Source: an uncultured Gammaproteobacteria bacterium (GTDB taxonomy: Bacteria > Patescibacteriota > Microgenomatia > Levybacterales > UBA12049). Taken from it: a stretch of 64,000 nucleotides of DNA. The notes under the pieces were generated by a model, which did not search any database, was not told the DNA's origin, and worked only from the letters and a program-made list of their open reading frames with translations. Shown piece after piece: positions 4,810 through 38,648 of the stretch. Position 1 is the stretch's first letter. Each line of letters opens with the position of its first letter. The stretch is taken from NCBI GenBank assembly GCA_964503265.1, contig CAZCYO010000001.1:25119-89118 (forward strand). Direction: 5' to 3'. The position numbers and the translations under genes were made by a program.

Positions 4810-4850
4810 TATATATGAATTTATTTTTTGCGTGATATAATTTTTATATA

Positions 4851-5450
4851 GTGAGTAGCGACCAGACAGCTTTGTTAAAACAAGTCAGAGATGACGTTTG
4901 GCATCTATCAGCGTCCCCACTGTATACATTTCGTAAAAAGAATAACTACTATCCAGTACTTGGTGAAGGAAATCATAGTGCTAAAATCATGTTCATAGGT
5001 GAAGCTCCTGGGAAAAATGAGGCTGAACAGGGGAAACCATTTTGTGGAGCAGCTGGCAAAGTTTTGGATGAGTTACTTGAGGCAGTGGGCTTACATCGAA
5101 AAGATGTCTATGTGACAAATATTGTTAAAGATCGTCCACCTGAAAATCGTGACCCATTACCAAGTGAGATTTCTGTATATGGGCCATTTTTAGATCGGCA
5201 AATTGATATCATTCAGCCTAAAATAATTGCGACACTTGGTCGGTTCTCAATGAACTATATTTTAAGAAAGTTTGATGTTCCACAAAAAGATGAAACAATT
5301 TCACGTCTTCATGGACAATTATTACCTGCACACGCAAGTTATGGAGAGATACACTTGCTTCCACTTTATCACCCAGCAGTAGCTCTTTATAATGCAAGTA
5401 CGAAGGATACATTGATTAAAGATTTCCAGGTTATCCAGACTATTGTTTGA
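4851..5450 (+). CDS. uracil-DNA glycosylase, family 4
   Basis: IMFIGEAPGKNEAEQGKPFCGAAGKVLDELL and HPAVALYN motifs characteristic of family-4 UDG. Confidence 0.85.
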   Translation: MSSDQTALLKQVRDDVWHLSASPLYTFRKKNNYYPVLGEGNHSAKIMFIGEAPGKNEAEQGKPFCGAAGKVLDELLEAVGLHRKDVYVTNIVKDRPPENRDPLPSEISVYGPFLDRQIDIIQPKIIATLGRFSMNYILRKFDVPQKDETISRLHGQLLPAHASYGEIHLLPLYHPAVALYNASTKDTLIKDFQVIQTIV

Positions 5451-11077: not shown

Positions 11078-12274
11078 TTGTTTTTGTTAAAATCAGCACA
11101 GATGGAAAATATAATTGAACTCATTAATGAAGCGGGAGTAAAATTTTTGGAACCACTTACCATAGATGCAACGTATGCGACTATTGTTGAGGAAGCAAAG
11201 AAACTCGTTAAAGCTGAGTACGGATCAGTTCTCTTAGAACAGGACGGCAAGCTTGAGCGGGTATATGCCTCGGATCCATTTCTCGAACATATTATGGTAC
11301 GTGAACGAGGTTTTACGTACGATGCATATAAAACCAGAGTTCCTCATGTTAAAAGTATTGTCGATATCGAAAAAGTTCACCCTGAAATAAAAGCAAAGGG
11401 AATAAAATCTACGATATTCATTCCACTATTTTATCGAAGTAAATCGCTTGGTGTATTATCACTCGATTCACTTACAGATAAAAAATTTACCAAAGAGGAA
11501 CTTGGTGTATTTACCTTATTTGGTTCAATTGCCAGTCTTGCGATTCGTAAAACAGAGTTATATGCTGAAACACAAAAAGCGCTTGAAACTCGGGATTTAT
11601 TTATCTCACTTGCTTCACATGAACTTCGAACTCCGCTTACTTCGCTCAATGGATATGTGCAGCTACTCTATTCAAAACTTGGAAAACAAGACACAAATGA
11701 AGGGAGATGGTCACGTGAATTATATGAAGAGAGCGGGAGATTAACGAGTTTGGTTAAAGAATTACTTGAGATTAACCGGATAAAACAAGGCCAGCTTCAA
11801 TACAATCTTCGTGAGTGTCAGCTTGTAGATATCACTGAAAAAGCAGTTGAACGCGCTCAATTTACTCATAAAGAACATACGATTCTTTTTACAAGCTCTG
11901 TTTCCAAAGGAAATGACTTGTTAATCGCAGATAGTGATAAGTTACTGCAAATGCTTAGCGGACTTATTCGAAATGCGACTAAATTCTCGACTCCTCATAC
12001 GAAAGTAGAAATTTCACTAACCGAAGAAAAAAATATGTTTAAACTAACAGTGACAGATGAAGGAGAGGGGATATATAAAGAAGATTTACCACATGTATTT
12101 GATGAATTTTTTAAAGGAGCAAATAGTAAACAAAAAGAAGAACAAGGAATGGGTGTTGGACTTCTCCTCGCGAGATATATCGTAAACTATCATAAAGGGA
12201 CTATCGCAATTTCTTCAACTGTCGGAAAGGGTACGCAGGTAATCGTGAAACTGCCAAAAGTTGAGTATGAATAG
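11078..12274 (+). CDS. soluble sensor histidine kinase (GAF + HisKA + HATPase_c)
   Basis: No TM; GAF-like N-domain; SHELRTPLTSL H-box; N/G1/G2 boxes (IRNATKFS, DEGEGI, GMGVGL). Confidence 0.8.
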   Translation: MFLLKSAQMENIIELINEAGVKFLEPLTIDATYATIVEEAKKLVKAEYGSVLLEQDGKLERVYASDPFLEHIMVRERGFTYDAYKTRVPHVKSIVDIEKVHPEIKAKGIKSTIFIPLFYRSKSLGVLSLDSLTDKKFTKEELGVFTLFGSIASLAIRKTELYAETQKALETRDLFISLASHELRTPLTSLNGYVQLLYSKLGKQDTNEGRWSRELYEESGRLTSLVKELLEINRIKQGQLQYNLRECQLVDITEKAVERAQFTHKEHTILFTSSVSKGNDLLIADSDKLLQMLSGLIRNATKFSTPHTKVEISLTEEKNMFKLTVTDEGEGIYKEDLPHVFDEFFKGANSKQKEEQGMGVGLLLARYIVNYHKGTIAISSTVGKGTQVIVKLPKVEYE

Positions 12275-15051: not shown

Positions 15052-15648
15052 ATGAAACACGCAAAAGCTGCCGTTGCTGTTTTTTTTATTACACTAATTT
15101 TTATTAGTTTTTCACCCACGAGAGCTCATGCAAATTTCTTCACTGATGTAGTAGATAAAGTTAAAAGTATTTTTGTAAAAGAAGATAAACCTCAACAAAC
15201 TGATTTGTCGATTGATTCACAAATTGTTCTCGCTCCTGGCGGTGATGTAAATAATAACGGGCAAATAGATTCTGGTGATATCGTACGGTTTATTTATAGT
15301 GTTAAAAATTCTTCAGATAAAACATATGCATTTTCAACTATTAAGACAAACATAAACCGCAACTCACTCAACTTTATTCATAATATTATCGGTGTTTCTG
15401 GACTAGCGGATAATGCTCGAGAAATAACTCTTCCGAATATCAGGTTATATCCTCATCAAGACCGGCTAATTAGTTTCGATGCGAGAGTTAATTATTTTGA
15501 AGATGAAGATCATCAAATCGAAACCACTGCTGTATTAGAAACTGCCGATAAGTCAGTAATTAAAGCTGCAAAAAAAGAAATTACCGCTAAAAAATTGAAG
15601 AAGGGAACAATCAATTCACTGTTTGATCGAAAAAATAGCAATGAATAA
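15052..15648 (+). CDS. secreted protein with a dockerin/EF-hand-like Ca-binding repeat
   Basis: Signal peptide MKHAKAAVAVFFITLIFISFSPTRAHA; DVNNNGQIDSGDIV matches dockerin repeat pattern; track ORF starts at TTG 15034. Confidence 0.4.
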   Translation: MKHAKAAVAVFFITLIFISFSPTRAHANFFTDVVDKVKSIFVKEDKPQQTDLSIDSQIVLAPGGDVNNNGQIDSGDIVRFIYSVKNSSDKTYAFSTIKTNINRNSLNFIHNIIGVSGLADNAREITLPNIRLYPHQDRLISFDARVNYFEDEDHQIETTAVLETADKSVIKAAKKEITAKKLKKGTINSLFDRKNSNE

Positions 15649-18600
15649 AAGAATTAAATTAGTTATAAGCATTGTACTAAATGCAACGTTACTCCTGACT
15701 TCGTATCTTCCTGGGTTCACCCTTTTATTTTCTCCTCAGATTGCAGATGCTGCAAATTCATGTGTTTCATACGGTGGTGGATCTGCTGCTGTTTTAAATG
15801 CCAAGGTTGGTGGTGTTGCCTTAGATCAAGCAGCCACATTTCTAGCTGATATGGATGATATTAAAGGGGCGTATTATGATTCTGTAAAAGATCGAATTGT
15901 TTTTATTGGTAAAGAAAACACATCACTTCCTGAATTTAATAAAGATGATTTAGCAGTAGCAATTAAATCTGTAATCTTTAAAGGAGTGCTTCCGGCTGTA
16001 AGTATCGAGAAATATGAGGGAGATCCTTTTGGTCCTAAACAACGTGCAATTTATTACGGAGGAATTGAGAATACACAATTTGGGAAAACCCTCATGGATG
16101 CAGACATAAAATTAAAAGAATTTGTACATGGATATGATAAAGATGAAAATCCAGTAAGCACATCAGTTTCAGGTTATGAATCACATTTCCAAAGATGGTT
16201 AGATCAAACTCCTGGGTTAACTGAATCTAATGCCAGCAGATGGGTAATAAGACCTAAATTAGTTTCTCTTAAAAGGGATACATCTACCAATTCTTTTGTT
16301 TTTAACGATGTGCAAATGGAAGTATATACGGAGGCGATGTCAGCATCTAATAGCGCAAAGTGGAATACAGCAGCAAGTGATTTTGCTACACATCATTCAT
16401 TACATTTCGATGATTTTGCACAAGAAATTCCAGCTTATGCCGATGCAAAACAGTTAGGAAAAATTGTAGCTGTAATCAAATGGCTTTCTGACAATGGGAT
16501 TCCTTCGGATTTTGCGTGGGCTTCTGATTATGCTCCTACTATTGTCTCAACACCAACTGAAGTAGATACCGTAATAACTCCAGAAATTGATGGATGGCGT
16601 TTATATGGAGGACTTGAGTATTACACGCCAAATACTTATACAACAGATAGTAGTACATCTGCTTCTTTTAAAACAGCTTCTGAGAATATAAATGCACCAA
16701 AGGAAGATATTCATTGGACGTTTACAAAAGATGGCCAAACATATGAATCTGTCGCTGTAGCAGCTGATGCATTTAGAAGTATTGGAGCATATAGTACTAG
16801 TGTTACGGATATGTCATTCCCAATGACCGGGGATTCAAGTCTCTCATTCACAAGATCATATTCTTCTTTCTCTGGAGCACAAAATGGGTGTGGTAGAGGA
16901 TGGTCGTTTATGCCGGCAGCGCTAACTGATAATAATCCTTCAGCTGATGGGGTTATTATTGGGACTTGTCCGAATGATACGTTTAATCATCGATATAAAG
17001 TAGCGTTTAATTCAAACACTGGAATAAGAGAAACATTTACTAACTACTGTGTGAGTAATACTAGTACGTACTTACCAGACGAAAGTGTTTTTCATTCGTC
17101 AATTACTGTTACTTCTACATCCAGCGCGTTAACTGTTTTAAAAGTAAAACAAAAAGATCAAAGTGAATATGAATTTCACGATATTTATTTAGATCCCAAT
17201 CAATATACAAGAACAAATATGCGGCTGGTGGCATATCGTGATAAAAATGGAAACAAAACGAATTACAATTATGATTCATCAAATAAACTAACAAGTATAA
17301 GTGATGATCGTGGACATCAACTAGCGATTACCTATAACGGAAGTAATTTAATTTCTTCTGTTAAGGACTGGACGAATAGAGAGGTTTCCTATGGATATGA
17401 CTCTCAAGGAAATTTAACTTCGGTGACTGATCCCAATGGGGAAACAAAACAGTACGGATATAACGACAATTATAAACTTAGCTCAATTACTGACAGATTA
17501 GGTCACACAATTCTTACTAATACATATAATGATGATGCGCGGTTAGCTACTCAAGTGAATTCAGGAAGTGTATCGGCTACCTTTACGTATGATGACACTC
17601 ATAGAGTTGCAACAACTTCATCCACTCTATCAAGAGTGCAAACAATTAAATATGATGAAAAAGCGAGGATACTAGAACAAATCGACCCACTTAATAATAA
17701 AACTACCTATACTTATGGAACCGAATATGCGCCTTTAACAGTTACAGATAGAAGAAATCATACAACCACAAATACCTATGACTCAAATGGAAATGTAACA
17801 TCTGTAACCGATCCATATAGCAAGACCGTTACTTACACCTATGATGGAAGTAATAGAATTACCCAAATTTCTGATGGTCGATATGGGGCTAGTCCCAAAG
17901 TTTCTAAATTCACTTACGATGGGTCCGGAAATCTGACTCAAGCATCCGAGTCAGGAAGGATTACTAACTTTACCTATGACTCATATGGAGAGATGTTAAC
18001 TAAAACTGATCCATTAACACATGTCATGACTTGGACGCGTGATTCATTTGGAAATAAACTAACAGAAACAAACGATTTGAGTAAAACTACTACGTTTGAA
18101 TACGACACATTAGCAAGGTTAAAGAAATCGACTGATTCAGAAGGAAAGTTCCAAACATTTTCTTATGATTACAATAACAATGTCTTAACGAGTACAAACT
18201 CAGCGGGAATAACGACAAATGAATATACGAAGGAAAATAAACTTAAGAAAGTTACATTACCTGATGGGACAATAACCCAGTTTACATATAACAATGCCGG
18301 GTCATTAAGTAGTGTCCAAGATGCTCTCAATAATACAACTACCTATGGGTATGACCAATATCAGAATATTACTTCTAACTTAAATGCACTTAATAAAACG
18401 ACTTCCTATACTTATGACAAGTTAAATAGAAGAACGGGGTCTACCACTCCACTTAGTAAAGTTACAGCACTTGAATATGATGCAAATGGGAATATCACTA
18501 AAAGAACAGATGCAAATAATAAAGATACGCTTTATCAATACGATAATTTAAATAGGCTTACTCAAATATCATATTCTGACAATAAAATAGTAAATTATAC

Positions 18601-21600
18601 CTATGATGATAGAGGAAATATGACATCGATGAGTGATAGTCTTGGAACAACCTCATACAGTTATGATATTTACAATCGGCTAACGCAGGTAACAGACCCA
18701 AATAGCAAAGTAGTGAGTTATTCCTATGATAATACTGATAATCTAACACAAATTACTTATCCAGGCAGTAAGGTAGTAGCATACGCATATGACAACGCTA
18801 ATCGTATAGAAACAATTACTGATTGGAATAGTCAGCAAACTACTTTTACCTATTTTGATAATGGTCTGATAAAGACTAAAACGCTTCCTAATGGAATAGT
18901 TAGTAGTTACACCTATGATAATGCAAATAGATTAAGTTCTGTTCAGCACACAAAAAGTTCAACTGTACTTGCAAAATTTGACTATGCAAGAAATGCAGTT
19001 GGAGGGATTATAACAGCGACTGAAAGTGGGACATTATTACCAACTACACCTACTTCTTCACCTTCTGCTGTTACTGTGAGTAATTTAGCTACAATGAGTA
19101 GCGTTACAAGTGCTAGTTCATATACGACATCTTCTATCTCACCATCAGCGAATAAATTATTATTACTGACAGTTGCTAGTAGGACAGGAATTACTGCTAA
19201 TCCAAACCAGCCAACCGTAACAGGAAATGGATTAACATGGGTTGCTGTCGATAGCCGAGTATATGATGATACGAGTAGTAGCAGAAGGAGAATAACTCTA
19301 TTTCGAGCAATGGGTACTAGCCCAACAAGTGGGACATTATCAATAGATTTTGGTGGACAGACACAGACAAATTATTCAGCTGTTGTTGATCAAGTAAGTG
19401 GTATGGATACATCTGGGACTAATGGATCAGGAGCTATCGTTCAATCTGCTAATAATTATGACAGTAGTAGTTCTTCATCTACATTATCTGTAACATTAGC
19501 AGCTTTTGGAAATACAAATAATGCAACATATGGAACATTTGCCAATGGAGATGGAGTTGCAGATCCGACTGCTGGTTCAGGATTCACCCAATATGGAGAA
19601 GTAACTGATTCAAATAATGCAATTAAAGTTTTATCAGAATTTAAGAGTACTAATGATACAAGTGTAGATATTGATTGGAATGATCCTTCGGAATTAGGGG
19701 GAATTGCTGTAGAAATAAAAGCGGGTAGTACAAGTAGTTACGAAACTGTCTCCGCATCTAATCTGATATCAGGAAGTACAACAAATGTGAATAGTTCCTC
19801 TACTGCATCTATTTCGCCAAGTGCAAATAAACTTGAGTTGTTAACTGTATCAAGCAGAACTGATATTTCTGCTAATCCAAATCAGCCAACTGTAACAGGA
19901 AATGGACTAACATGGGTTGCGGTAAACAGTATTGTTTATGATACTACTAGCACTAGTCGAAGAAGAGTTACCTTATTTAGAGCGATGGGTGCAAGCCCTA
20001 CATCTGGTGCACTTTCCATAGATTTTAGTGGACAAACGCAAACTGATATAACTTGGTCAGTGGATGAGTTATCTGGTGTCGATACAACAGGGACTAGTGG
20101 CTCAGGTGCAATTGTTCAATCTGCAACGAATAAAGATGAGACAGGATCCGCAACATCATTAGCAATTACCTTGTCTTCATTTGGAAATACAGCAAATGCT
20201 ACGTATGCCGGGATTGGTAAAGATGGAAATACTTCGGCTACAGCTGGTTCAGGTTTTACTATTTCTTCAGATGTTGCATCTTCGACAAATGTAGGTACTA
20301 GCACTCAATGGAAAAACACTAATGATACCTCAGTAGATATTTCATATGCTAGTTCTGTTTTAGTTGGAGGAATTGCTGTAGAAATTAAGGCGGGTACTTC
20401 ATCATCAGTATATCCGAATATCTCTTTATCGAATAAGACAACTGGATCTAACTCGTCTGGAGTTAATTCAGCAAATACATCATCTATTTCACCGTCTGCG
20501 AATAAATTACAGTTGTTAACTGTCGCTAGTAGAACGGCTATTACTGCAAATCCAAATCAACCTACAGTTTCAGGCAATGGATTAACATGGACTGCAGTAA
20601 ACAGCGTAGTATATGATGACTCAAGTAGCAGTAGAAGGAGAATCAGTGTATTTCGTGCGTTAGGAGCCAGTCCATCTTCAGGAGCAATTACAATAAGTTT
20701 TGGTGGGCAAACACAAACAGATATAGACTGGTCTTTAGATGAAGCAAGTAATGTTGATACAAGTGGAAGTAATGGATCCGGGGCAATAGTTCAATCAGCG
20801 ACAAATTATGATGCCAGTGGAACAGCATCTACTCTATCAGTTTCATTAAGTAGCTTCGGAAGTAATAGTAATGCAACATTTGGTGCTTTTGCAAATGGAT
20901 ATGGATTAGCAAATCCGACTGTAGGGTCAGGGTTTACAAAATATGGGGAACTCGCTGATTCAAATAATAATATAAAAGTTCTTACTGAATTTAAAAATAG
21001 TAATGATACTAGTATTGATATAAATTGGAATGATAATTCGGAACTCGGTGGTATAGCGATAGAATTAAAAGCTGCAGGAGTTCAATCAAATACTACTCAG
21101 TTCACATATGATTCAGTTCATAGATTACTGACAACGACATTTCCAGCTAATTCATTTGTGTACACATATGACGCGGTAGGAAATAGATTAACGAATACTA
21201 AAGATGGAGTACAGACTACAGCAACATTTAACGATGATAATAAGCTAACGCAATTTGGTTCTACGAGTTACTCGTATGATAACAATGGAAATAGGACTGC
21301 AGCTGGAAGTAAGACAATCGCATATAATTTAGAAAATAAGGTTGCTACTCAATCTGCGAGTGGGGATCCAACGATAGAGTTTACATATGATGGAAATGGG
21401 AAGAGGTTAGGGCAGAAAGTAAATGGGACACAGACTAGAAGATATATTAATGACATCTCAGGAAGTCTAGAAAAAGTACTTATCACACAAGATCTCCAAA
21501 ATAGCACAGATAACTACTACCTCTATGGAAACGGCCTGGTTAGTGAAGGAGGAGTAAGTTCAGGTAATCGTAATTATTATCTCGAGGATGGATTAGGCAA

Positions 21601-22246
21601 CATACGAGCTATTACAGATAGCAGCGGAAACTCACTCGATACCATGACATATGATCCCTATGGAAATCTCCTCACCGGATCAAGCTCAGCAGAATTTAAA
21701 TTCAAAGGAGAACAACTAAACACCGATACAAGCCTCTACTACATGCGTGCCAGATACTATGATCCAACCACAGGAACATTCACCTCAAAAGACCCGCACG
21801 AAGGAGATCTAAATAATCCAAACTCACAGAATGGCTATGACTATGCAAATGGTGATCCTATTAATCTGAATGATCCATCTGGAGAGCTAGTATTTGCAGA
21901 TGATGCAATTTTTATTGGAGCAGCAGCGTGTGCAGGAGTGTATGTTTATGCTACTAATCCAGCTGTTAAATCTGCTGTAAATACAACTGTCAGCACGACA
22001 ATTAATCAAATTATAGGAGGTATAAATACTTTACTTGATGAATCTAGAAATCCAAAACAAGATACAAAGTTGAGTGAAGGTGAGATAAAGAAACTACAAA
22101 ACGGTGGTCAAGATATTCATGATATTAAAGGCGGTGATAGTGGCAAGGATCTTTTTAAAGATCCAAAGACGGGCGAAATTTATATTAAGCCTAAAAACGG
22201 TGCAGGACCAGGTGACGAAACAGGGTTAAATATCAATGATTTTTAA
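15623..22246 (+). CDS. giant RHS/YD-repeat polymorphic toxin protein with Sec signal peptide
   Basis: Signal peptide; dozens of YD repeats (YTYD..GN.T..TD); RHS core YYMRARYYDPTTGTFTSKDP then DPSGEL; ~115-aa variable C-terminus; alternative ATG at 15641 (MNKRIKL...). Confidence 0.85.
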   Translation: MIEKIAMNKRIKLVISIVLNATLLLTSYLPGFTLLFSPQIADAANSCVSYGGGSAAVLNAKVGGVALDQAATFLADMDDIKGAYYDSVKDRIVFIGKENTSLPEFNKDDLAVAIKSVIFKGVLPAVSIEKYEGDPFGPKQRAIYYGGIENTQFGKTLMDADIKLKEFVHGYDKDENPVSTSVSGYESHFQRWLDQTPGLTESNASRWVIRPKLVSLKRDTSTNSFVFNDVQMEVYTEAMSASNSAKWNTAASDFATHHSLHFDDFAQEIPAYADAKQLGKIVAVIKWLSDNGIPSDFAWASDYAPTIVSTPTEVDTVITPEIDGWRLYGGLEYYTPNTYTTDSSTSASFKTASENINAPKEDIHWTFTKDGQTYESVAVAADAFRSIGAYSTSVTDMSFPMTGDSSLSFTRSYSSFSGAQNGCGRGWSFMPAALTDNNPSADGVIIGTCPNDTFNHRYKVAFNSNTGIRETFTNYCVSNTSTYLPDESVFHSSITVTSTSSALTVLKVKQKDQSEYEFHDIYLDPNQYTRTNMRLVAYRDKNGNKTNYNYDSSNKLTSISDDRGHQLAITYNGSNLISSVKDWTNREVSYGYDSQGNLTSVTDPNGETKQYGYNDNYKLSSITDRLGHTILTNTYNDDARLATQVNSGSVSATFTYDDTHRVATTSSTLSRVQTIKYDEKARILEQIDPLNNKTTYTYGTEYAPLTVTDRRNHTTTNTYDSNGNVTSVTDPYSKTVTYTYDGSNRITQISDGRYGASPKVSKFTYDGSGNLTQASESGRITNFTYDSYGEMLTKTDPLTHVMTWTRDSFGNKLTETNDLSKTTTFEYDTLARLKKSTDSEGKFQTFSYDYNNNVLTSTNSAGITTNEYTKENKLKKVTLPDGTITQFTYNNAGSLSSVQDALNNTTTYGYDQYQNITSNLNALNKTTSYTYDKLNRRTGSTTPLSKVTALEYDANGNITKRTDANNKDTLYQYDNLNRLTQISYSDNKIVNYTYDDRGNMTSMSDSLGTTSYSYDIYNRLTQVTDPNSKVVSYSYDNTDNLTQITYPGSKVVAYAYDNANRIETITDWNSQQTTFTYFDNGLIKTKTLPNGIVSSYTYDNANRLSSVQHTKSSTVLAKFDYARNAVGGIITATESGTLLPTTPTSSPSAVTVSNLATMSSVTSASSYTTSSISPSANKLLLLTVASRTGITANPNQPTVTGNGLTWVAVDSRVYDDTSSSRRRITLFRAMGTSPTSGTLSIDFGGQTQTNYSAVVDQVSGMDTSGTNGSGAIVQSANNYDSSSSSSTLSVTLAAFGNTNNATYGTFANGDGVADPTAGSGFTQYGEVTDSNNAIKVLSEFKSTNDTSVDIDWNDPSELGGIAVEIKAGSTSSYETVSASNLISGSTTNVNSSSTASISPSANKLELLTVSSRTDISANPNQPTVTGNGLTWVAVNSIVYDTTSTSRRRVTLFRAMGASPTSGALSIDFSGQTQTDITWSVDELSGVDTTGTSGSGAIVQSATNKDETGSATSLAITLSSFGNTANATYAGIGKDGNTSATAGSGFTISSDVASSTNVGTSTQWKNTNDTSVDISYASSVLVGGIAVEIKAGTSSSVYPNISLSNKTTGSNSSGVNSANTSSISPSANKLQLLTVASRTAITANPNQPTVSGNGLTWTAVNSVVYDDSSSSRRRISVFRALGASPSSGAITISFGGQTQTDIDWSLDEASNVDTSGSNGSGAIVQSATNYDASGTASTLSVSLSSFGSNSNATFGAFANGYGLANPTVGSGFTKYGELADSNNNIKVLTEFKNSNDTSIDINWNDNSELGGIAIELKAAGVQSNTTQFTYDSVHRLLTTTFPANSFVYTYDAVGNRLTNTKDGVQTTATFNDDNKLTQFGSTSYSYDNNGNRTAAGSKTIAYNLENKVATQSASGDPTIEFTYDGNGKRLGQKVNGTQTRRYINDISGSLEKVLITQDLQNSTDNYYLYGNGLVSEGGVSSGNRNYYLEDGLGNIRAITDSSGNSLDTMTYDPYGNLLTGSSSAEFKFKGEQLNTDTSLYYMRARYYDPTTGTFTSKDPHEGDLNNPNSQNGYDYANGDPINLNDPSGELVFADDAIFIGAAACAGVYVYATNPAVKSAVNTTVSTTINQIIGGINTLLDESRNPKQDTKLSEGEIKKLQNGGQDIHDIKGGDSGKDLFKDPKTGEIYIKPKNGAGPGDETGLNINDF
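19135..21075 (+). repeat. three tandem ~670-nt (~224-aa) intragenic repeats inside the RHS gene
   Basis: SISPSANKL.LLTV.SRT.I.ANPNQPTV.GNGLTW.AV.S.VYD..S.SRRR...FRA.G.SP.SG...I.F.GQTQT ... GGIA.E.KA recurs at ~19135, ~19808, ~20482. Confidence 0.7.
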
Positions 22247-22993
22247 TTGCGTGATATAATGCTTCATATGTTCAACGATCCTGGGCTAAAAAACGAGAGT
22301 ACTGCGTGGCTTAATATTATTGGATTTGATATGAATCCAGATGAAATAACTAAAGAAGTCGGCGTTAATCCAACAAAAACTAGAATAAAAGGTGAATACC
22401 GAACTGTCGGTACAAAAACGCCGAGAAAAATTATTAATAAGGAGAATCAATGGATTTTAGAGTCAAGTTTATCTCGTAAGTTACCATTAGAAAAGCATTT
22501 GGAGCATCTGCTTGATAAAATAAAATTCCATAAAGACAGCTTTAAATATCTTACAAAAAGCTGCACTGTTGAGCTGAATAGTGCTTTATATTACTACGAA
22601 GCCAATCCAGGGCTTTCTTTTGAAACTGAACTTCTTAAGGAAATAGCAGATTTTGATATTTCATTAAATCTTGATATATACTGTCTAGCTGGAACAGTTC
22701 TTGAGCTAGAACAACCGAAAGTTGTTAGGCATTTAAAAAAACATTTGTCTGAAGTAAAGTTTCTTTTGAATGGTACTAAAGAAAATGAAGTAAATTATAT
22801 TTTAGAAAGTTTGAAGGGTATAGAAGAATCCGCCTATGCTATTCAGAGTGATTATATGCACGATTTGATTTGGACTGAAAAGCTCGAAGATGAAAGGTAC
22901 GAAGAAACTCTATTAAAAATAGCTAAGGAAATAAATAACATTAATAACTATGTAAAGAAATCTAAATATTTATCTTCATTAGTGAATAAATGA
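22247..22993 (+). CDS. candidate immunity protein, DUF4279-like N-domain
   Basis: Starts immediately after RHS stop (TTG; ATG at 22259/22268); ...PDEITK..G..PTK...KGE...G.......W.L.S... pattern recalled from DUF4279; family assignment unverified. Confidence 0.4.
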   Translation: MRDIMLHMFNDPGLKNESTAWLNIIGFDMNPDEITKEVGVNPTKTRIKGEYRTVGTKTPRKIINKENQWILESSLSRKLPLEKHLEHLLDKIKFHKDSFKYLTKSCTVELNSALYYYEANPGLSFETELLKEIADFDISLNLDIYCLAGTVLELEQPKVVRHLKKHLSEVKFLLNGTKENEVNYILESLKGIEESAYAIQSDYMHDLIWTEKLEDERYEETLLKIAKEINNINNYVKKSKYLSSLVNK

Positions 22994-23108
22994 GTGATTT
23001 AGTATTTAATATTTTTATTAGTTTATTTGGACTATTTTTTGCTATACAGTTTAAAAAAATGGAGAAAGAGATTCTTAAACCAATAGGTTTATAGTATAAT
23101 CAAAAAAA

Positions 23109-23594
23109 ATGAGTCGTTTAAAAATTGGCGATATTTTCGAAATCCCATTATCTAATAACAAAAAAGCATATGGACAGTATATTTATTTAGATTTTTTTGG
23201 ACCTTTAATACGGGTATTTAATCTCATAGTAGATGTAAATAAGCAGGTGGACATAGATGTTATTACCTCTTGCAAATTACTTTTCCCCCCAGTTTATACA
23301 GGTGTTAAAGCTGCAATCAAAAATGGCATGTGGAGCGTGATAGGGAACAAAGAAATACATGAATTTGTATTTCCGGGGTTTGTAAGAACATTTCAAGACT
23401 TAAATACAGGTGATGCAACAATTTGGTTTTTATGGGATGGGAAAAACAACGTACGAATTGGTAAAAAACTTTCTGATGATATGAAAAAATTTGAGTTTCT
23501 TGCGATATATTCTCCCGATTTAATTGAAAAAAGGATTATTAGCAAGGAAAAACCATATCAAGATTTAATTCTTACAAATAAATTAGCAAATTAG
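23109..23594 (+). CDS. hypothetical protein, candidate immunity/orphan immunity gene
   Basis: 161 aa, KIGDIFEIPL..NKKAYGQYI N-terminus similar in style to predicted immunity families; context only. Confidence 0.3.
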   Translation: MSRLKIGDIFEIPLSNNKKAYGQYIYLDFFGPLIRVFNLIVDVNKQVDIDVITSCKLLFPPVYTGVKAAIKNGMWSVIGNKEIHEFVFPGFVRTFQDLNTGDATIWFLWDGKNNVRIGKKLSDDMKKFEFLAIYSPDLIEKRIISKEKPYQDLILTNKLAN

Positions 23595-23595
23595 A

Positions 23596-23928
23596 ATGAT
23601 ACTCTCTCTACCTGCACGAATACGACAAGAATCAATAAAAAAACTTGTTGAAGTAGCAACCTTAATGGAATCAAATAAAATTAATTTGATAGAAGGTAGT
23701 AGACATATTAATAGATTACGTCATTATACAGAAGATGCTAATGATGATCTTTTTACTATTTTTATTTTAGTGAACTCAGACACAGATGATATACCACTTA
23801 ACGAAACCAGAAAAAACTTTAGTAAAGCACTTTTAGAAGAAAAAGATAAAAAAATGGTTGATTACTTAGCTAATATGAAACCTACTATTTTGCAAGGTTG
23901 TAAAGAAATTATAAAAAAGTTCTCCTAA
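23596..23928 (+). CDS. hypothetical small helical protein
   Basis: 110 aa, starts 2 nt after previous stop. Confidence 0.3.
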   Translation: MILSLPARIRQESIKKLVEVATLMESNKINLIEGSRHINRLRHYTEDANDDLFTIFILVNSDTDDIPLNETRKNFSKALLEEKDKKMVDYLANMKPTILQGCKEIIKKFS

Positions 23929-23987: not shown

Positions 23988-24512
23988 ATGAAAATTAGTT
24001 TTATTACAAAGTTATCTGTTGAAAACTGTATTAAAAAAATTAGTGATAACGCTGAGAGAAATACGTTTATGGCGAGCTTTTCTCGTTTATGGGATTACGA
24101 AAAGACATTTTTTTATCGTATAAAGGGGAATACTTTTCGACTAGAAAAAGTTAATTATTATAGAAACTCATTCAAACCAGTCTTTTATGGAAAATTAATT
24201 AAAGAAAATAATGGAACGAGGATAGAAGGTTATTTTGGAATTCATCAAGCTGTTAAACTGTTCATGATATTTTGGTTTCTAGGGGTAACAATTTTGAGCC
24301 TTATCCCCGCACTTAATGCGATTGATGATCTTTTTATTCCTTCAAAAATAGTTCCCGGCCATCTTACTGCAAATCCGCTTTTGGCATTGTCTATACCGTT
24401 TATATTTATTGGATTTGGAATATTAATAATTTTTATCGGAAAATATTTTGGGGAAAAAGATGAAAATGAAATAGTCGAATTTATTAAATCTAAGCTAGAA
24501 GTAATTTCTTAA
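23988..24512 (+). CDS. hypothetical membrane protein (2 C-terminal TM)
   Basis: ATG 23988 preceded by tataat; track ORF begins at TTG 23943. Confidence 0.3.
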   Translation: MKISFITKLSVENCIKKISDNAERNTFMASFSRLWDYEKTFFYRIKGNTFRLEKVNYYRNSFKPVFYGKLIKENNGTRIEGYFGIHQAVKLFMIFWFLGVTILSLIPALNAIDDLFIPSKIVPGHLTANPLLALSIPFIFIGFGILIIFIGKYFGEKDENEIVEFIKSKLEVIS

Positions 24513-25207
24513 TATACTTGAATATTTTTTGAATCTGTTACATTAACCGTGTTACTGCACTTATCTTCCTCTCCTGTCACTATCACACTTTTCCCTTCAT
24601 ACAAATTCGGAGAAAATGAGCTATTTATCGGGAGATGGAGGACTGAGCCATTTTGCTTAATTAATACTACTCTTTGTGTGTCTTTATTCTGGACTTGCTT
24701 TCCCTGAAGTATCGTTAGCATGTCTGTCAGGATAGATACTACTGGAATTCTTTTCGCAGTATCTACTGCTGTTAAAATCCGGAGGGTTCCAACCTCTGAT
24801 TGTATACCTTTCGAACATAATGCATGTGTTCCGCCAAAGAATCCAAATGTTCCAATCACTAAGACAATTCCCGCGAGTCCTAAAGATCCTTTCAATGTAA
24901 AACTAAAGGCTTTTTGTTTTTTAATTTCTTCAAGCAGTGCTGAAATTTTACGCAGAGGATTGCCGACATGGACATCAAGAAGATCGTCATTTGTTACTTT
25001 GTGATCGACTCCTATGCCATGGGGGAGAAGGGCATCTAGTACTGGATACTTTTGGCTAGTAGTTATGGGTGATTGGTTGTTTGGCAGAAAGGATGGATCT
25101 GTGTGATCAACGTGAACAAAATGGCCGTGTGCATCATGAGGATGCTTGGGGCCAGATAGTGTTCTACCATCAATATCTTCTGATAATTTAGCAGATGACT
25201 CATCCAT
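24509..25207 (-). CDS. His-rich single-TM protein, unknown function
   Basis: HPHDAHGHFVHVDH N-terminal His cluster, central TM, beta-rich C-domain. Confidence 0.35.
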   Translation of the reverse strand: MDESSAKLSEDIDGRTLSGPKHPHDAHGHFVHVDHTDPSFLPNNQSPITTSQKYPVLDALLPHGIGVDHKVTNDDLLDVHVGNPLRKISALLEEIKKQKAFSFTLKGSLGLAGIVLVIGTFGFFGGTHALCSKGIQSEVGTLRILTAVDTAKRIPVVSILTDMLTILQGKQVQNKDTQRVVLIKQNGSVLHLPINSSFSPNLYEGKSVIVTGEEDKCSNTVNVTDSKNIQVY

Positions 25208-25263
25208 ATAAAAAGCGTAAAACTTTTTTGTTCAATTTGCAAGAACAACACTTTAGTTGCCTG

Positions 25264-25290
25264 GATCCCAGATCAAGTCTGGGATGACAT
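25264..25290. repeat. hairpin repeat of GTCATTCCCG family (variant, reverse orientation)
   Basis: ggatcccagatcaagtctgggatgacat = reverse complement of a variant of gtcattcccgacttgatcgggaatc at 47861. Confidence 0.6.
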
Positions 25291-25292
25291 CA

Positions 25293-25457
25293 ATATGGGG
25301 GATATGGTCAAAGTATGGGCCAGATATGGCTAGGCTTAAAGTACCATAGTTATGGTGATATGGTGGCGATATGGTTATTTGGGCGTCAAATCAAGCTAAT
25401 TATGGTGTCGATATAATTTCTAACTTGTCACCACAAATTGATATGGTGGAAATATGG
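25293..25457. promoter_or_regulatory. array of ~10 (A/T)TATGG(T/C) direct repeats, many spaced ~11 bp
   Basis: atatgg at 25293,25302,25324,25358,25369,25441,25452 plus gtatgg 25313 and tatgg 25351,25401; lies upstream of 24509..25207 and 3' of the OmpR-type RR gene. Confidence 0.5.
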
Positions 25458-25554
25458 CTTGAATAGGTGATTAGTTATTTGTTACTAGTGATTAGACAAA
25501 AAGGAAAATCATATAGATTCTCCCGGTGTACACTGAGGGGAATGACATAGTGGA

Positions 25555-26226
25555 TTACTCTCTAATAACGTAGCCGAAGCCTCGGACGGAGTGGAGGAGT
25601 TTCTTTTCGTGGCCTTCATCTACTTTTTTTCGTAAGTATCCCATATAGACATCGACAACTCTGGTTTCAACTTCGCTTGAATAAAGCCAAATTCTATTTA
25701 AGATCATTTCACGAGTCAAAATTCTTCCTTTATTACTCATAAGATACTGGAGTAATTTAAATTCTTGGGGAGTGAGTTGGATTTGTTTACCGTTTCGTAT
25801 GACTTCGAGTGTTTTCGCATCGAGAGTTAAGTCGTTTATCGTTAACTTCGTGTCGCCGTTTCCTGTTGAGCGAAGTCTGGCTTTAATTCTAGCTAAAAAT
25901 TCATCTGCCACAAATGGTTTTGTAATGTAATCATCTGCTCCTAAATTAAGTCCTTGGACAATATCACTGACACTGTCTTTGGCGGTTAGAATAATGATTG
26001 GAAGTTCTGGGTATTTTTTGCGAACTTCAGTACAGACTGCTTCTCCAGACATATTCGGAAGTCCGAGATCAAGTACCATCACATCGGGTTCCATTTTTCC
26101 AAGTTGATCAAGTGCTTCAATGCCATCTCCAGCTAATTGGACATTATAGGCATTATCAAGGAGGAGTTCTTTTAAATATTTTTGGAGACCTTTGTCATCT
26201 TCTACCACCAGAATTGTGTACGTCAT
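25555..26226 (-). CDS. OmpR/PhoB-family response regulator
   Basis: REC domain (VEDD...D, DVMVLDLGLP, ILTAKD) + winged-helix (LTPQEFKLLQYL...RVVDVYMGYLRKK). Confidence 0.88.
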   Translation of the reverse strand: MTYTILVVEDDKGLQKYLKELLLDNAYNVQLAGDGIEALDQLGKMEPDVMVLDLGLPNMSGEAVCTEVRKKYPELPIIILTAKDSVSDIVQGLNLGADDYITKPFVADEFLARIKARLRSTGNGDTKLTINDLTLDAKTLEVIRNGKQIQLTPQEFKLLQYLMSNKGRILTREMILNRIWLYSSEVETRVVDVYMGYLRKKVDEGHEKKLLHSVRGFGYVIRE

Positions 26227-26664
26227 ATAATATTCAGTATTATAGCAACAATTCTACGCTTGAACAAACACTTTTACCTCATCTATTACAGTTTTCATAC
26301 ATATGGATAAATATTCGTTATGAGTTGTTGGTATATTCTTACGCATCTATGATCCAAATCTTACTGTTGACTTGACTTAGTACTCACTTTTGTTATACTT
26401 CCTTCACTCCTTTGCTATCACACTGGAGTAACTGATGAGTATCCTGCCAACCATCATATCTCCTGTTTTCACCTTTACCCACTTATGTATTTGTGTGCCG
26501 AGAATTCTTTTTCAGAGTGTTAACGAAACGATATCTCAATTCAGAATAAAGGATGTGATATATAATGATTGAAGAGTTCATACGAAAAATAATTGCGATA
26601 TTCGGCAGTCGACCTCAGCCCGCATATGTAACGGTCGAGGAGTAAGAACGGTACTGAGCGCGTA

Positions 26665-27042
26665 ATGTATAATGTCGATATGAATGGAAAAATATTAGTT
26701 GCAGAAGACGATAGTGCAATAGTAGAGGTAATGAAAATTATTCTTGAAGATGCCAAATATACTGTTTTTACGGCAGATAATAGTCGCGATATTCATTCAC
26801 TTATCAAAAACGAAGATCCACAGCTTTTACTACTCGATATCTGGTTATCTGGTGAAAATGGTGGGGAAATTGCAAAAAGTATTAGAACAGATGAGAAAAC
26901 AGCATCACTTCCAATTGTCATGATTTCGGCAAATAACGAAACAGAACGAATCGCTAAAGAAGTAGGAGCAGCGGGATTTTTACAAAAGCCATTTACCATT
27001 GATGATTTACTTTCGATGGTTAAACAGCACATTCGTGCTTAA
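26665..27042 (+). CDS. single-domain CheY-like response regulator
   Basis: KILVAEDD, LLLLDIWLSG, MISANNE, FLQKPF; no output domain; probable start at MNGKIL (26683). Confidence 0.8.
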   Translation: MYNVDMNGKILVAEDDSAIVEVMKIILEDAKYTVFTADNSRDIHSLIKNEDPQLLLLDIWLSGENGGEIAKSIRTDEKTASLPIVMISANNETERIAKEVGAAGFLQKPFTIDDLLSMVKQHIRA

Positions 27043-27353
27043 TGGTAACAGATTATTTCATTTTCCTTACATCCTTTACGCATTTCTCTTATATAGGTAC
27101 GCTACCATACGTATATGGAAATAATAATGATCGTATGCATGGGAGTTGCAGCGTATGTTTGTGCAAGTATAATACAGATCTCCTAATAATCATGAAAAAA
27201 AAAGAAAAAAGATTCGTATATGAAGATGTCATTTCAGATATAGGTGGAAAGAAGGTTTCATTTCGTGATGTACTTACCAAACGACTTAAAATAGAAACAT
27301 ATTTTTCAGCAGGTGAAGTAATATTTGTAGAATCCTCTCAAGCTTCTAATTAA
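27042..27353 (+). CDS. hypothetical protein
   Basis: 103-aa ORF; weak, possible later start at MKKKEKRF (27190). Confidence 0.25.
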   Translation: MVTDYFIFLTSFTHFSYIGTLPYVYGNNNDRMHGSCSVCLCKYNTDLLIIMKKKEKRFVYEDVISDIGGKKVSFRDVLTKRLKIETYFSAGEVIFVESSQASN

Positions 27354-27369
27354 CTGGTATTATTAGATA

Positions 27370-27942
27370 ATGTCTAAAAAAAATATTAGTTTAGTCCTTT
27401 CTATTATTCTTGCCGTTATTTATTATGCAACTTCGACTTCTTCACATCCGGAAATTCTCGGAACAAAAAATGTCGTTATTGCCCCACCTATTTCTGTCAC
27501 TCAAACTCAGGTTGTGATTGGACAGTATGCTGTCACGAAAGTAGTCGATGGAGATACGATTAAAGTTACTCGTGAGAATGAAATGAAAACAGTTCGCTTG
27601 ATTGGTGTCGATACTCCAGAAACAGTTGATCCACGAAAAACTGTTCAATGCTTTGGTAAAGAAGCATCTGATTTTACGAAGTCACTTCTTGACGGACAGA
27701 CTGTAACACTTCAATCAGATAACACACAGCAGGTAACAGATAAATACGGACGGATGCTGGCATATGTATATCTATCAGATGGTACGCTCGTTAATGAAAA
27801 AATAATTCGCTCGGGATATGGATATGAATATACCTATAACGTGCCTTATATTCACCAAAAAGAATTTAAAGAAGCACAGCGTCTAGCAGAGTTAGAAGGA
27901 AACGGGTTATGGAGTGCTAGTACATGCCAAGGAAAACGCTAA
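27370..27942 (+). CDS. secreted/membrane-anchored thermonuclease (SNase family)
   Basis: N-terminal TM; VVDGDTIKV..VRLIGVDTPE ... RMLAYVY core motifs of staphylococcal-nuclease fold. Confidence 0.85.
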   Translation: MSKKNISLVLSIILAVIYYATSTSSHPEILGTKNVVIAPPISVTQTQVVIGQYAVTKVVDGDTIKVTRENEMKTVRLIGVDTPETVDPRKTVQCFGKEASDFTKSLLDGQTVTLQSDNTQQVTDKYGRMLAYVYLSDGTLVNEKIIRSGYGYEYTYNVPYIHQKEFKEAQRLAELEGNGLWSASTCQGKR

Positions 27943-31012: not shown

Positions 31013-31053
31013 GAGAAGCCTCAAGATGCAAGCCTCAAAGATTCAGAGTCTTT

Positions 31054-36716: not shown

Positions 36717-38648
36717 TTAGACAACCAGAAGTACAGCAAGTGGAAGTGATAGTAATAATACGAATAACGCTTCAGGATTTGTAACAATTGTTAGTAATTT
36801 TACTTCCATGAAGTGAATAAACTCACTGGGATGTTTTAATAAAGACATTTTATTTACTGGGTAAACAGCTGAGATACTATGTTTATCAATCGTAATAGTA
36901 TCTAGAGAATCAGGATTATTTACTGCAATTTCTACGATATATGTTTTTCCTTTAGAATCTAATATTTGTGGAAATCCGAACGGAAATATCTCGGCATCGT
37001 CAAAAAGTCGCATTTCATATGAAGAAGTAGCGATAACAGTATTCTTTGAGAGTTCTTTTAGCGAAAATAGTACAGATTGAGGAGTAGTCGCTGAATCTGG
37101 TTTTTTATGTTTTACCTGCATCGTAATAATACCGAGTTTGTTTTCAGTTGCAGTGAATTGAACTGTGAGAGAATTGTCTTTAGTCAGCGTAATGCTATTT
37201 TCTGTTATGAGTGGAGAACGTATATGGGTTGAATCTATAGGATCTGAGATGGAGAAAAAATTGAGCGTTGATTGGTACGTCATAAGAAGTGAAAAAATAT
37301 ATAGTAGAAGAATGGTACCGAGAATATACCGGGGATTTTTTATGAGTTTTCTCTCGACGACTGTTATTGGTGCCTTACTCTCATGACTCCGCGTAAAATA
37401 TGGTTTTTCTAGGAGATAAAATAATCCTGATGCGACGAGAGCATCTACTAAAAAGACAGAAAATAGATAGACGATGTTAGTTAGCGTATCTGTTGGAGTG
37501 TATATTTTCTCAAACACATGAATAATGATCGCGTGACTTAAATAAATTGAATAACTGATAGTTCCGATAAAAACGAGTGTTTTTTTACTCCCGATTTTTG
37601 CCAGAATAGAATCGTTATCCAGAAGAAGTGTGACTAAACCTGTTAATGGTATCGCAAATAGTAATCTAATCCATGGCCCCGCAAAAGACGGGAATATTAC
37701 CCCCACTGCATGTACAGAGGCGAGAGTTAGTAGGAAAACTACCAGAGGAAGAACATAAAATCTTCTCGTAAAAAAAGCCGAGAACGATGTAATTATTTCC
37801 GGACGATTTTTATATATAGTTCCAAGCGTTATACCTGTTACGAAATAGTAAAACAACTCAAGTTGTAATAGATGTAGTCCGAATATTCTCTGTGACAGTA
37901 TTTGGATTCCACCGAAAAATGGAAGCAATGAAAGCACAAAAGCAATTTGAACACTAGGTCTTTTCGTACTGATATATCTGGCAAGTGGGGAGAACAGAAA
38001 TGGATAGAGTATATAAAATAGAACTTCGGCGACAAGTGTCCAGTACACACCATCAATCATCGGAATATAGTCACCAAGTGGCAGCGTGAGTGTGGCGTTA
38101 ACTAGTCCTATTACTGCTTCATGAAGTGGGTAGGGAAACTGGCTAAAGAAAAGGGGAGGATGACGCATGATCCAAAGAAGATAATATGCTCCAGTAATTA
38201 CTTGGATAAAAAGAAATGAAATGAAGAGCATGTTCCCAGCACGTGGTGGAAGTTTTTTAATCACATACACCCACAAAATATGAGTAATTATCGCAAATAC
38301 TAAGATGATCGAAATAAAATAAAACCATGATGCATGAGGATTCAGCCGGTACATCATCATCACACTACACATTGTCAGAAAAAGTGGAAAAATCCTGGTG
38401 TAACGCTTTTGGAGAAACGCTAGTGGTGACGGGGGGTTCGGATACAAGTATGACATTAAAAACCCAGATAAAATAAATAGAAATGTCACACCAGTAACTC
38501 CGTCAGCAAATATCCAGCCGAAAAGATATGGTGAAAGATATGGAGATATGAATGCTGTGTTGATGTGATTTAAAAAGACGAGAATAATCGCAAATCCACG
38601 AAGTCCATCAAGAGCAGATAGTCGAGAACTCGTTTTATCTTTTTCCAT
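36717..38648 (-). CDS. acyltransferase-3 (OatA-like) membrane protein with extracytoplasmic C-domain
   Basis: LDGLRGFAIILVFLNHI signature, ~10 TM, ~250-aa C-terminal soluble domain. Confidence 0.8.
   Translation of the reverse strand: MEKDKTSSRLSALDGLRGFAIILVFLNHINTAFISPYLSPYLFGWIFADGVTGVTFLFILSGFLMSYLYPNPPSPLAFLQKRYTRIFPLFLTMCSVMMMYRLNPHASWFYFISIILVFAIITHILWVYVIKKLPPRAGNMLFISFLFIQVITGAYYLLWIMRHPPLFFSQFPYPLHEAVIGLVNATLTLPLGDYIPMIDGVYWTLVAEVLFYILYPFLFSPLARYISTKRPSVQIAFVLSLLPFFGGIQILSQRIFGLHLLQLELFYYFVTGITLGTIYKNRPEIITSFSAFFTRRFYVLPLVVFLLTLASVHAVGVIFPSFAGPWIRLLFAIPLTGLVTLLLDNDSILAKIGSKKTLVFIGTISYSIYLSHAIIIHVFEKIYTPTDTLTNIVYLFSVFLVDALVASGLFYLLEKPYFTRSHESKAPITVVERKLIKNPRYILGTILLLYIFSLLMTYQSTLNFFSISDPIDSTHIRSPLITENSITLTKDNSLTVQFTATENKLGIITMQVKHKKPDSATTPQSVLFSLKELSKNTVIATSSYEMRLFDDAEIFPFGFPQILDSKGKTYIVEIAVNNPDSLDTITIDKHSISAVYPVNKMSLLKHPSEFIHFMEVKLLTIVTNPEALFVLLLSLPLAVLLVV

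Follow-up and report, generated by a model that had tools for sequence, protein, structure and literature searches.

The stretch of DNA analysed here comprises 64,000 nt (contig CAZCYO010000001.1, positions 25,119 to 89,118) and is called the window below. A dense array of short repeats is located in its 347-bp spacer 25208-25554, which extends from the stop codon of an OmpR/PhoB-type response regulator gene (25555-26226, minus strand) to the start of a membrane-protein gene (24509-25207, minus strand). The array appears to be the local version of a module that is found upstream of the same membrane-protein gene in many relatives. In this module, two conserved boxes, B1 and B2, and the positions of the repeats are kept, while the repeated word differs between lineages. 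The array comprises the following elements:

25293..25458, minus strand: whole word array, ten direct copies of (A/C)CCATA(T/A/C) on the gene strand (= WTATGG on the plus strand), in four sub-clusters
25293-99, 25302-08, 25313-19 and 25324-30, minus strand: promoter-proximal sub-cluster of four words, spacings 9, 11 and 11 bp
25330..25340, minus strand: degenerate box B2, TTTAAGCCTAG, with 3 mismatches to the consensus TTAGCCTCAAA
25343..25356, no strand: palindrome ACCATAGTTATGGT = ACCATA-ac-TATGGT, composed of the inverted word ACCATAG (25343-25349) and one direct word
25350-56, 25358-64 and 25369-75, minus strand: sub-cluster of three words, containing the 11-bp unit CGCCACCATAT (gene strand)
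25381..25398, minus strand: conserved box B1, TAGCTTGATTTGACGCCC, 18 bp, an imperfect inverted repeat TGATTTG-N5-CAAAT(C/A)A
25400..25406, minus strand: word slot directly upstream of B1, CACCATAA, from the alignment with relatives
25429..25436, plus strand: inverted copy of an older word form, CACCACAA on the plus strand (TTGTGGTG on the gene strand), from the alignment
25441-47 and 25452-58, minus strand: distal word pair, 11 bp apart

Motif counting yielded ten TATGG cores in the same orientation on the plus strand between 25294 and 25457. They start at 25294, 25303, 25314, 25325, 25351, 25359, 25370, 25401, 25442 and 25453. Nine of the ten match WTATGGB and seven the strict form (A/T)TATGG(T/C). 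The second-densest 170-bp stretch of the window has four copies, and dinucleotide-preserving shuffles (n = 200) never had more than five (Poisson probability of at least ten copies about 1.5e-12 per 170-bp stretch). The original prediction, which had been made from the letters alone and counted about ten copies in 165 bp, was correct in this respect. Successive cores are 9, 11, 11, 26, 8, 11, 31, 41 and 11 bp apart. The predicted distance of exactly 11 bp was found between four neighbouring pairs. The helical phasing attributed to the array applies to these four pairs, but not to the entire array, the phase coherence of which peaks at R = 0.64 (period 10.75 bp): A single helical register is absent, and the array is better described as four sub-clusters than as one phased series. 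Further ATATGG-phased arrays were not found in the window, where a position-weight scan returned only a weak 12-bp pair at 38527/38539. A general scan of the window for clusters of any 6-mer returned this array alone. Over the whole window, TATGG occurs 125 times on the plus strand vs 40 times on the minus strand, a threefold bias that persists outside the array.

For comparison, 66 genome loci and about 15 further contigs were used (designated by L numbers). An orthologue of 24509-25207 is encoded at about 80 loci. A plain search for TATGG arrays in the related loci failed, and the upstream regions were read directly instead. The ATATGG array turned out not to be general upstream of orthologues, but many related loci carry an array of a different word at the same place. 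At 24 or more Microgenomates loci with a member of this gene family, a module is present that is composed of B1 and B2 surrounded by 6-14 copies of a 6-8 bp word. The copies, direct ones at distances of 8-11 bp and inverted ones in convergent pairs, occupy positionally orthologous slots. Eight word types were distinguished:

CCATA(T): window, L003, L069, L071
CCAGAT: L001
CCAGGA: L068
CCACAA: L004, L007, L009, L012, L025, L026, L049, L062
CCACAG: L010, L024, L041
CCGCAG: L029
CCGTT(T/A): L030, L064, L073, L079
TCCCGC: L080

All words keep a CC start, as would be expected for a family of readers with some fixed and some drifting contacts. In each genome, the palindromes are made from the genome's own word. 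B1 has one and the same sequence in the window, L003 and L012, shows 0-2 mismatches in L069, L025 and L068 and is near-identical in L064. This identity extends to genomes whose proteins share only about 40% of their residues. B1 occurs once in the window, and the words flanking it are 31 bp apart. In our alignment (A2), B1 is invariant and the orthologous slots on both sides change their word in concert, both palindrome arms included. The slot upstream of B1 reads CACCATAA in the window, CACCACAA in L003, L069 and L012, TACCACAA in L025 and CACCAGGA in L068. At the slot orthologous to 25343..25356, a palindrome of the local word is also present in L003, L012 and L068. In L003 and L069, the slots GACCATAC/GACCATAT correspond to the promoter-proximal sub-cluster (25293..25330). 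The assignment of 25330..25340 as B2 rests on position: It lies at the same place as TTAGCCTCA in L003, L069, L012 and L068.

Intermediates between word types exist. The slot at 25429..25436 reads TTGTGGTG in L003 and the window and TTATGGTG in L069, and L003 mixes CCACAA with CCATAx. The promoter-proximal palindrome of the window uses CCAGA of L001. The 11-bp unit CGCCACCATAT is extra in the window, where L003 and L069 have an 11-column gap and TRF gives a period of 11, so the array has been expanded by one such unit. These alignments indicate an old module with conserved slots, the word of which evolves in concert.

The region between the array and the downstream gene contains:

25265..25285, no strand: perfect palindrome ATCCCAGA-N5-TCTGGGAT, centre about 67 bp upstream of the start codon, built from CCAGA, the word found throughout the array of the closest relative L001
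25237..25242, minus strand: putative -35 TTGCAA, from sequence reading and homology with L001 and L067
25214..25219, minus strand: putative -10 TACGCT, 17 nt past the -35, with 6 nt between its end and the ATG
24509..25207, minus strand: membrane-protein gene, 232 amino acids (aa)

The predicted promoter of 24509-25207 is sigma-70-like. The same form, TTGCAG-N17-TACGAT, precedes the orthologues in L001 and L067. A consensus promoter scan of the window did not report TTGCAA-N17-TACGCT, the -10 of which is weak. The mRNA is probably leaderless or nearly so. Since the promoters of the family adjoin the start codon, the words are probably upstream DNA (-58 to -255) and not 5' untranslated region. 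The position given in the original prediction, in the promoter region of 24509-25207 and directly 3' of the regulator gene, was correct. The designation of the product as His-rich fits modestly: It has a PRDxxGHF-type N-terminal motif and a few extra histidines in this lineage.

The product of 24509-25207 crosses the membrane once. A disordered tail at the N-terminus is followed by a juxtamembrane helix, which is strongly conserved, and the outer domain at the C-terminus is beta-rich and resembles an oligonucleotide/oligosaccharide-binding (OB) fold. The family of this protein has at least 341 members in Levybacteria, Roizmanbacteria, WWE3 and other Patescibacteria; neither Pfam nor NCBIfam has a family for it. 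Hallmarks are PRDxxGHF in the variable tail, a near-invariant juxtamembrane NPLRKI..LLEEIKKQKAFSFTLKGSLG, one transmembrane helix and two conserved cysteines in the outer domain. The AlphaFold model has a mean predicted local distance difference test (pLDDT) score of 70, with mostly 82-96 in the outer domain and disorder in residues 1-82. Its matches in PDB are weak and OB-like, among them the membrane-anchored chaperone CcmE. In L029, a DUF3800-IX RNA (Rfam RF02968, 62.7 bits) is located just downstream of the membrane-protein gene (4816-4887, minus strand).

The best reading of these data remains a protein-binding array with many sites. We consider it about an even bet that the window contains a local version of an ancient module of the Microgenomates that acts in cis (candidate phyla radiation, CPR), which would serve as operator or upstream activating array for a trans-encoded reader co-evolving with the word. 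Several copies of one sequence-specific DNA-binding protein, encoded in trans, would occupy the words. Because word spacing and orientation vary, the binding form would be monomers or a flexible oligomer. The 11-bp runs would place neighbouring copies on one face of the helix, and assembly would proceed cooperatively along about 170 bp between -58 and -255 from the start codon. B1 in the centre would probably be read by a second, conserved factor or act as a bend. The complex would control the adjacent promoter and the transcription of 24509-25207. Word and reader specificity would drift together, most easily if the reader has one or very few targets. The presence of a single array in 64 kb agrees with a dedicated rather than a global reader. 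The word sites of the window lie upstream of the -35, which would suit activation, but in L003 and L071 they overlap the -35.

Cooperative binding to arrays of this kind is known. PhoP binds cooperatively to 11-nt units, up to six per operator (PMC2275107). The ribbon-helix-helix (RHH) protein ParB/omega of pSM19035 binds cooperatively to arrays of short words in mixed orientation, which are both operators and centromeres (PMC9499535). PHO-box/PhoP operators share with the window array a 7-bp word and a 4-bp spacer, which together form an 11-bp unit, and the location of several units upstream of a promoter (PMC2275107). At PhoP operators, monomers bind cooperatively, and complex operators have up to six units (PMC2275107). 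In contrast to the PhoP system, the words of the module are also found inverted and at 8-9 bp, the word varies though the regulator is constant, and the regulator is unlinked.

The original prediction named the neighbouring regulator as the binding protein. An OmpR/PhoB-type regulator encoded at 25555-26226 would bind the phased ATATGG repeats head-to-tail in a pho-box-like manner and regulate the downstream gene. This part of the prediction is contradicted by the comparison, and very little weight is left to it, whereas a binding array as such agrees with the data. Two features delimit the gene in the window:

25502..25524, minus strand: terminator-like hairpin with T-run, which closes the regulator transcript and separates the regulator gene from the array
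25555..26226, minus strand: OmpR/PhoB-family response regulator gene (Response_reg and Trans_reg_C)

The 7-bp word with its 4-bp spacer and the four pairs at exactly 11 bp are indeed like PhoP operators (PMC2275107), and the regulator gene is adjacent to the array in the window and 3-11 kb away in L003, L069 and L073. Tandem 11-bp units are present, yet so are spacings of 8, 9, 26, 31 and 41 bp and inverted copies. Among the about 80 loci, the gene is adjacent in the window only, and tblastn detected none within 4 kb in about 70 loci. In L003 and L069, the only loci matched in this search, the regulator is 3 kb off on the opposite strand, beyond a REC-only gene and lon. Next to the closest orthologue of the regulator (96% identical; L074-L076), a 543-aa open reading frame (ORF) is found, followed by glycosidase and GAF-kinase genes. 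The latter are located at 11-15 kb in the window, where the intervening DNA contains an RHS-toxin cassette, immunity genes and the module together with its gene. The upstream region of the regulator gene itself contains no copy of the word.

The most direct argument concerns the protein. The best 120 regulator orthologues are 77-96% identical, and the winged helix-turn-helix segment TRVVDVYMGYLRKK and the wing are nearly invariant, while the word varies by lineage. Contig CBFDGE010000102.1 (genome of L073/L081) encodes regulator P0221, which is 80% identical overall, yet the word of its module is ACCGTTA. In the DNA-binding domain, P0221 differs from the window's regulator by three conservative changes (S164N, E185D, V186I), which are outside the recognition helix. 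Since a reader of a varying word must itself vary and the regulator does not, the neighbouring regulator is very unlikely to be the reader of the word. It could read the constant boxes B1 or B2; a copy of B2 is present upstream of the regulator gene in L074. On present evidence, the gene is a neighbour of the module and not a part of it. Gene adjacency seems to have pointed to the wrong regulator here.

The regulator scores below every NCBIfam equivalog cut-off. Upstream of its gene, a -10 CTATAAT/CTATACT is conserved (window 26227-26330; L003 855-983; L074 5824-6075). In addition, the window, L003, L069 and L074 share repeated (T)GTAAGA(A) motifs in this upstream region. They are unlike the ATATGG word and are candidate sites of the regulator itself. 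A REC-only gene (26665-27042) is divergent from the regulator gene, and the same divergent pair is present in L003 and L069. A GAF-HisKA histidine kinase is encoded at 11078-12274, 13 kb from the regulator. As no kinase is adjacent, the regulator is genomically an orphan. The RHS-toxin cassette of the window (15623-23928) encodes an RHS/YD-repeat protein of 2207 aa, in which an internal repeat of about 230 aa occurs three times and the C-terminal tip is toxin-like. After the RHS gene, probable immunity genes follow: DUF4279 (22247-22993), Imm26 (23109-23594) and a weak DUF2489-like gene (23596-23928). The RHS/immunity cassette is absent from the corresponding place in L074, which is the closest relative there.

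Alternatively, the module might be transcribed and function at the RNA level, as a small RNA or a leader that forms alternative hairpins, in which the words would form stems and B2, which contains CCUC, would be an anti-Shine-Dalgarno seed. From lineage to lineage, the two palindrome arms vary jointly. However, ten unpaired direct words in the window face one or two possible inverted partners, and since direct copies (10) far outnumber inverted ones (1-2), stem pairing cannot explain the array. Folding of either strand gives z of about -1.6 and is no better than that of shuffles. Mismatches in the palindromes are of the G.U type in 19 and of the A.C type in 12 cases, i.e. without a wobble strand asymmetry. 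Rfam gave no match at E<=1 in 24000-27500 and none at the gathering score over the modules of 14 loci. In L077/L078, a good -10 upstream of another gene follows B1 at the spacing of a -35, so that B1 might be a promoter; by eye, the modules show no conserved -10 at a suitable distance from B1. As Rfam matches, significant folding and wobble asymmetry are all missing, a structured RNA was rejected, and we regard an RNA function of the module as quite improbable. The start-codon context TATGG was also considered as a pairing partner of the word, but this holds in this lineage alone and was discarded as a coincidence.

Several identities of the boxes were tried. A B1 form, TAGCTTGATTTGACGGCCAAAT, is present without a word array in L077 (2849-2870, minus strand) and L078 (198-219, plus strand), about 70 nt upstream of an unrelated gene for a small membrane/coiled-coil protein. 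At these two loci, TTGACG within B1 is 17 nt from AATAAT and looks like a -35. B1 as a conserved promoter fits L077/L078 and roughly L003, but fails in the window, L012, L025 and L064. The resemblances of B1 to an IHF site and of B2 to a CIRCE half-site are not conserved, as judged by eye (for B1 on the alignment). A metagenome scan for B1 returned only two short contigs, both without arrays. The B2 core TAGCCTCAA occurs about 24 times in about 0.5 Mb of related loci, where about four copies are expected. About 15 of them are outside modules and mostly intergenic (examples: L074 5963-5971, L052 4085, L056 4529 and L060 4523, all on the minus strand). In the window, two B2-like copies are found right after lon (31014-31040). 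The B2 core may be a general signal of these genomes.

Phased repeats, and DnaA-box-like words in some relatives, also recall a replication origin, either a chromosomal oriC or one of the plasmid iteron type. GC skew is positive across all 64 kb without a switch at 25.3 kb, and no consistent flip was observed at 13 array-bearing loci. No dnaA, dnaN or rep gene is among the annotated ORFs of the window, and dnaA/dnaN are near none of the loci. The spacer 25208-25554 has no site within one mismatch of TTATCCACA. Plasmid iterons are alike in being direct repeats that evolve in concert with their reader. However, they have units of 17-22 bp with a period of about 22 bp beside a rep gene. The array has units of 7-8 bp, no rep gene and no plasmid or phage similarity, and its setting is chromosomal and conserved. 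Consequently, the iteron-like element that the original prediction had offered as a second possibility was rejected together with oriC and other mobile elements, and an origin function is hardly credible.

A DnaA-box cluster outside the origin has more in its favour. The module could be such a cluster, like datA/DARS or those of Bacillus, which titrates or remodels DnaA or controls the gene, and CCATAT would be a diverged box. The clusters datA, DARS1/2 and the DnaA-box clusters of Bacillus have 9-mer-like words in both orientations and a central conserved box, and they can persist independently of their neighbours. The central conserved box of the module recalls the IHF site of datA/DARS. In several lineages the module word is nearly a DnaA box: (A/T)TCCACAA, found in many, matches 7/9 positions of TTATCCACA, and L026 has two perfect TTATCCACA boxes. 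Several matches to TTATCCACA are present in the relatives L026, L004 and L009, but not in the window array, whose word is no DnaA box. The boxes have both orientations and variable spacing, as for a monomeric binder, and include 11-bp runs in the same orientation. Furthermore, displaced modules stay intact. Against this, no DnaA box is close to the words CCAGGAT, CCGTTA and TCCCGCC. The specificity of DnaA is, as a rule, strongly conserved, and the turnover of the module word goes far beyond the known variation of DnaA boxes. A DnaA-box cluster is given only a small chance; an origin of the module as such a cluster is possible.

The layout has another counterpart. At the narG promoter, many NarL heptamers of varied orientation and spacing are spread over about 150-200 bp of upstream DNA, with a separate IHF site in the middle. 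This array and the module are alike in combining many heptamers with a central architectural site. They differ in that the protein family is another one and unlinked, and in that no IHF consensus is conserved in B1, as seen by eye.

Several observations weigh against the module as an array serving the adjacent promoter through a dedicated reader. In L012, L024, L030 and L073, the intact module is 2-2.8 kb away from the gene, and unrelated genes are inserted exactly in between (L012 1219-3912; L024 836-2577; L030 2101-3936; L073 7909-9972). These insertions suggest a recurrent insertion point between module and gene. In L041 and L079, 0.3-0.4 kb of other sequence separates the two. Unless the insertions happened recently, an autonomous site accounts better for intact displaced modules than a simple promoter operator does, and the case for an operator is weakened to that extent. 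Many members of the gene family have no module, e.g. L067 at 59% identity. No conserved gene was found beside the module when neighbouring ORFs of at least 90 aa and of 45-200 aa were clustered. The half-site gaps of the palindromes vary (core gaps 0-11 bp), which excludes a rigid dimer. Autoregulation by the product of 24509-25207 was rejected, too, since its AlphaFold model shows no DNA-binding fold.

These displaced modules speak for an autonomous chromosomal site, such as a centromere-like partition site for a small RHH-type protein or a hot spot of recombination or insertion, for which proximity to the gene would be old synteny and not regulation. lon is followed directly by the module in L003, L069, L012 and L073, and in L007 the module directly adjoins a tRNA-Val gene. 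With its lineage-specific words in mixed orientation, the module is similar to plasmid centromeres, which at the same time serve as operators (PMC9499535). The arrays of omega/ParB of pSM19035 and of ParR-parC share with the module 7-10 short words in mixed orientation at promoters, the double role as operator and autonomous site, and element-specific words (PMC9499535). However, arrays of the pSM19035 type have a contiguous 7-bp period, are plasmid-borne and lie beside the gene of their reader. The module is chromosomal, its words are 7-11 bp and longer distances apart, and no linked small gene was found. Mixed orientation and some contiguous word pairs at 7-8 bp are present, most spacings are longer, and the words are not contiguous as in parS of pSM19035. 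No conserved ORF of 45-200 aa that could encode a small reader was detected near the modules, and across 72 loci no neighbour gene is conserved. A linked partition or recombinase gene was not found, nor was similarity to plasmids or phages. In most loci, the module abuts or overlaps the promoter of the gene. An autonomous site is, in our view, unlikely. The tRNA gene mentioned above is tRNA-Val(CAC), located directly upstream of the module in L007 (3769-3841); in L032 and L047 (3852-3924) it is directly upstream of a gene without module.

Arrays of short repeats bound by a regulator are known. Unusual here are the scaffold kept across a superphylum, a word rewritten at least eight times and the lack of a linked reader among the genes found. 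Literature searches returned no description of such an element in CPR bacteria. A superphylum-wide element that keeps B1, B2 and its slots while its word is rewritten at least eight times would imply an unrecognised, unusually evolvable reader for one or a few loci, or a mechanism that needs only identity among the repeats, whatever their sequence. This implication is put forward tentatively, with the odds rather against it. If true, either such a reader or such a mechanism would be a new relationship between regulator and site for a gene that is chromosomal and inherited vertically. Bacteria of the candidate phyla radiation cannot be grown alone, and knowledge of their transcriptional control is close to nil. 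For these bacteria, the module provides a non-coding element that is conserved, easy to recognise and linked to a conserved envelope protein. With the turnover of its word, it offers a natural experiment on how a DNA site and its reader evolve together, and correlation between words and protein residues across complete genomes should reveal the reader without cultivation.

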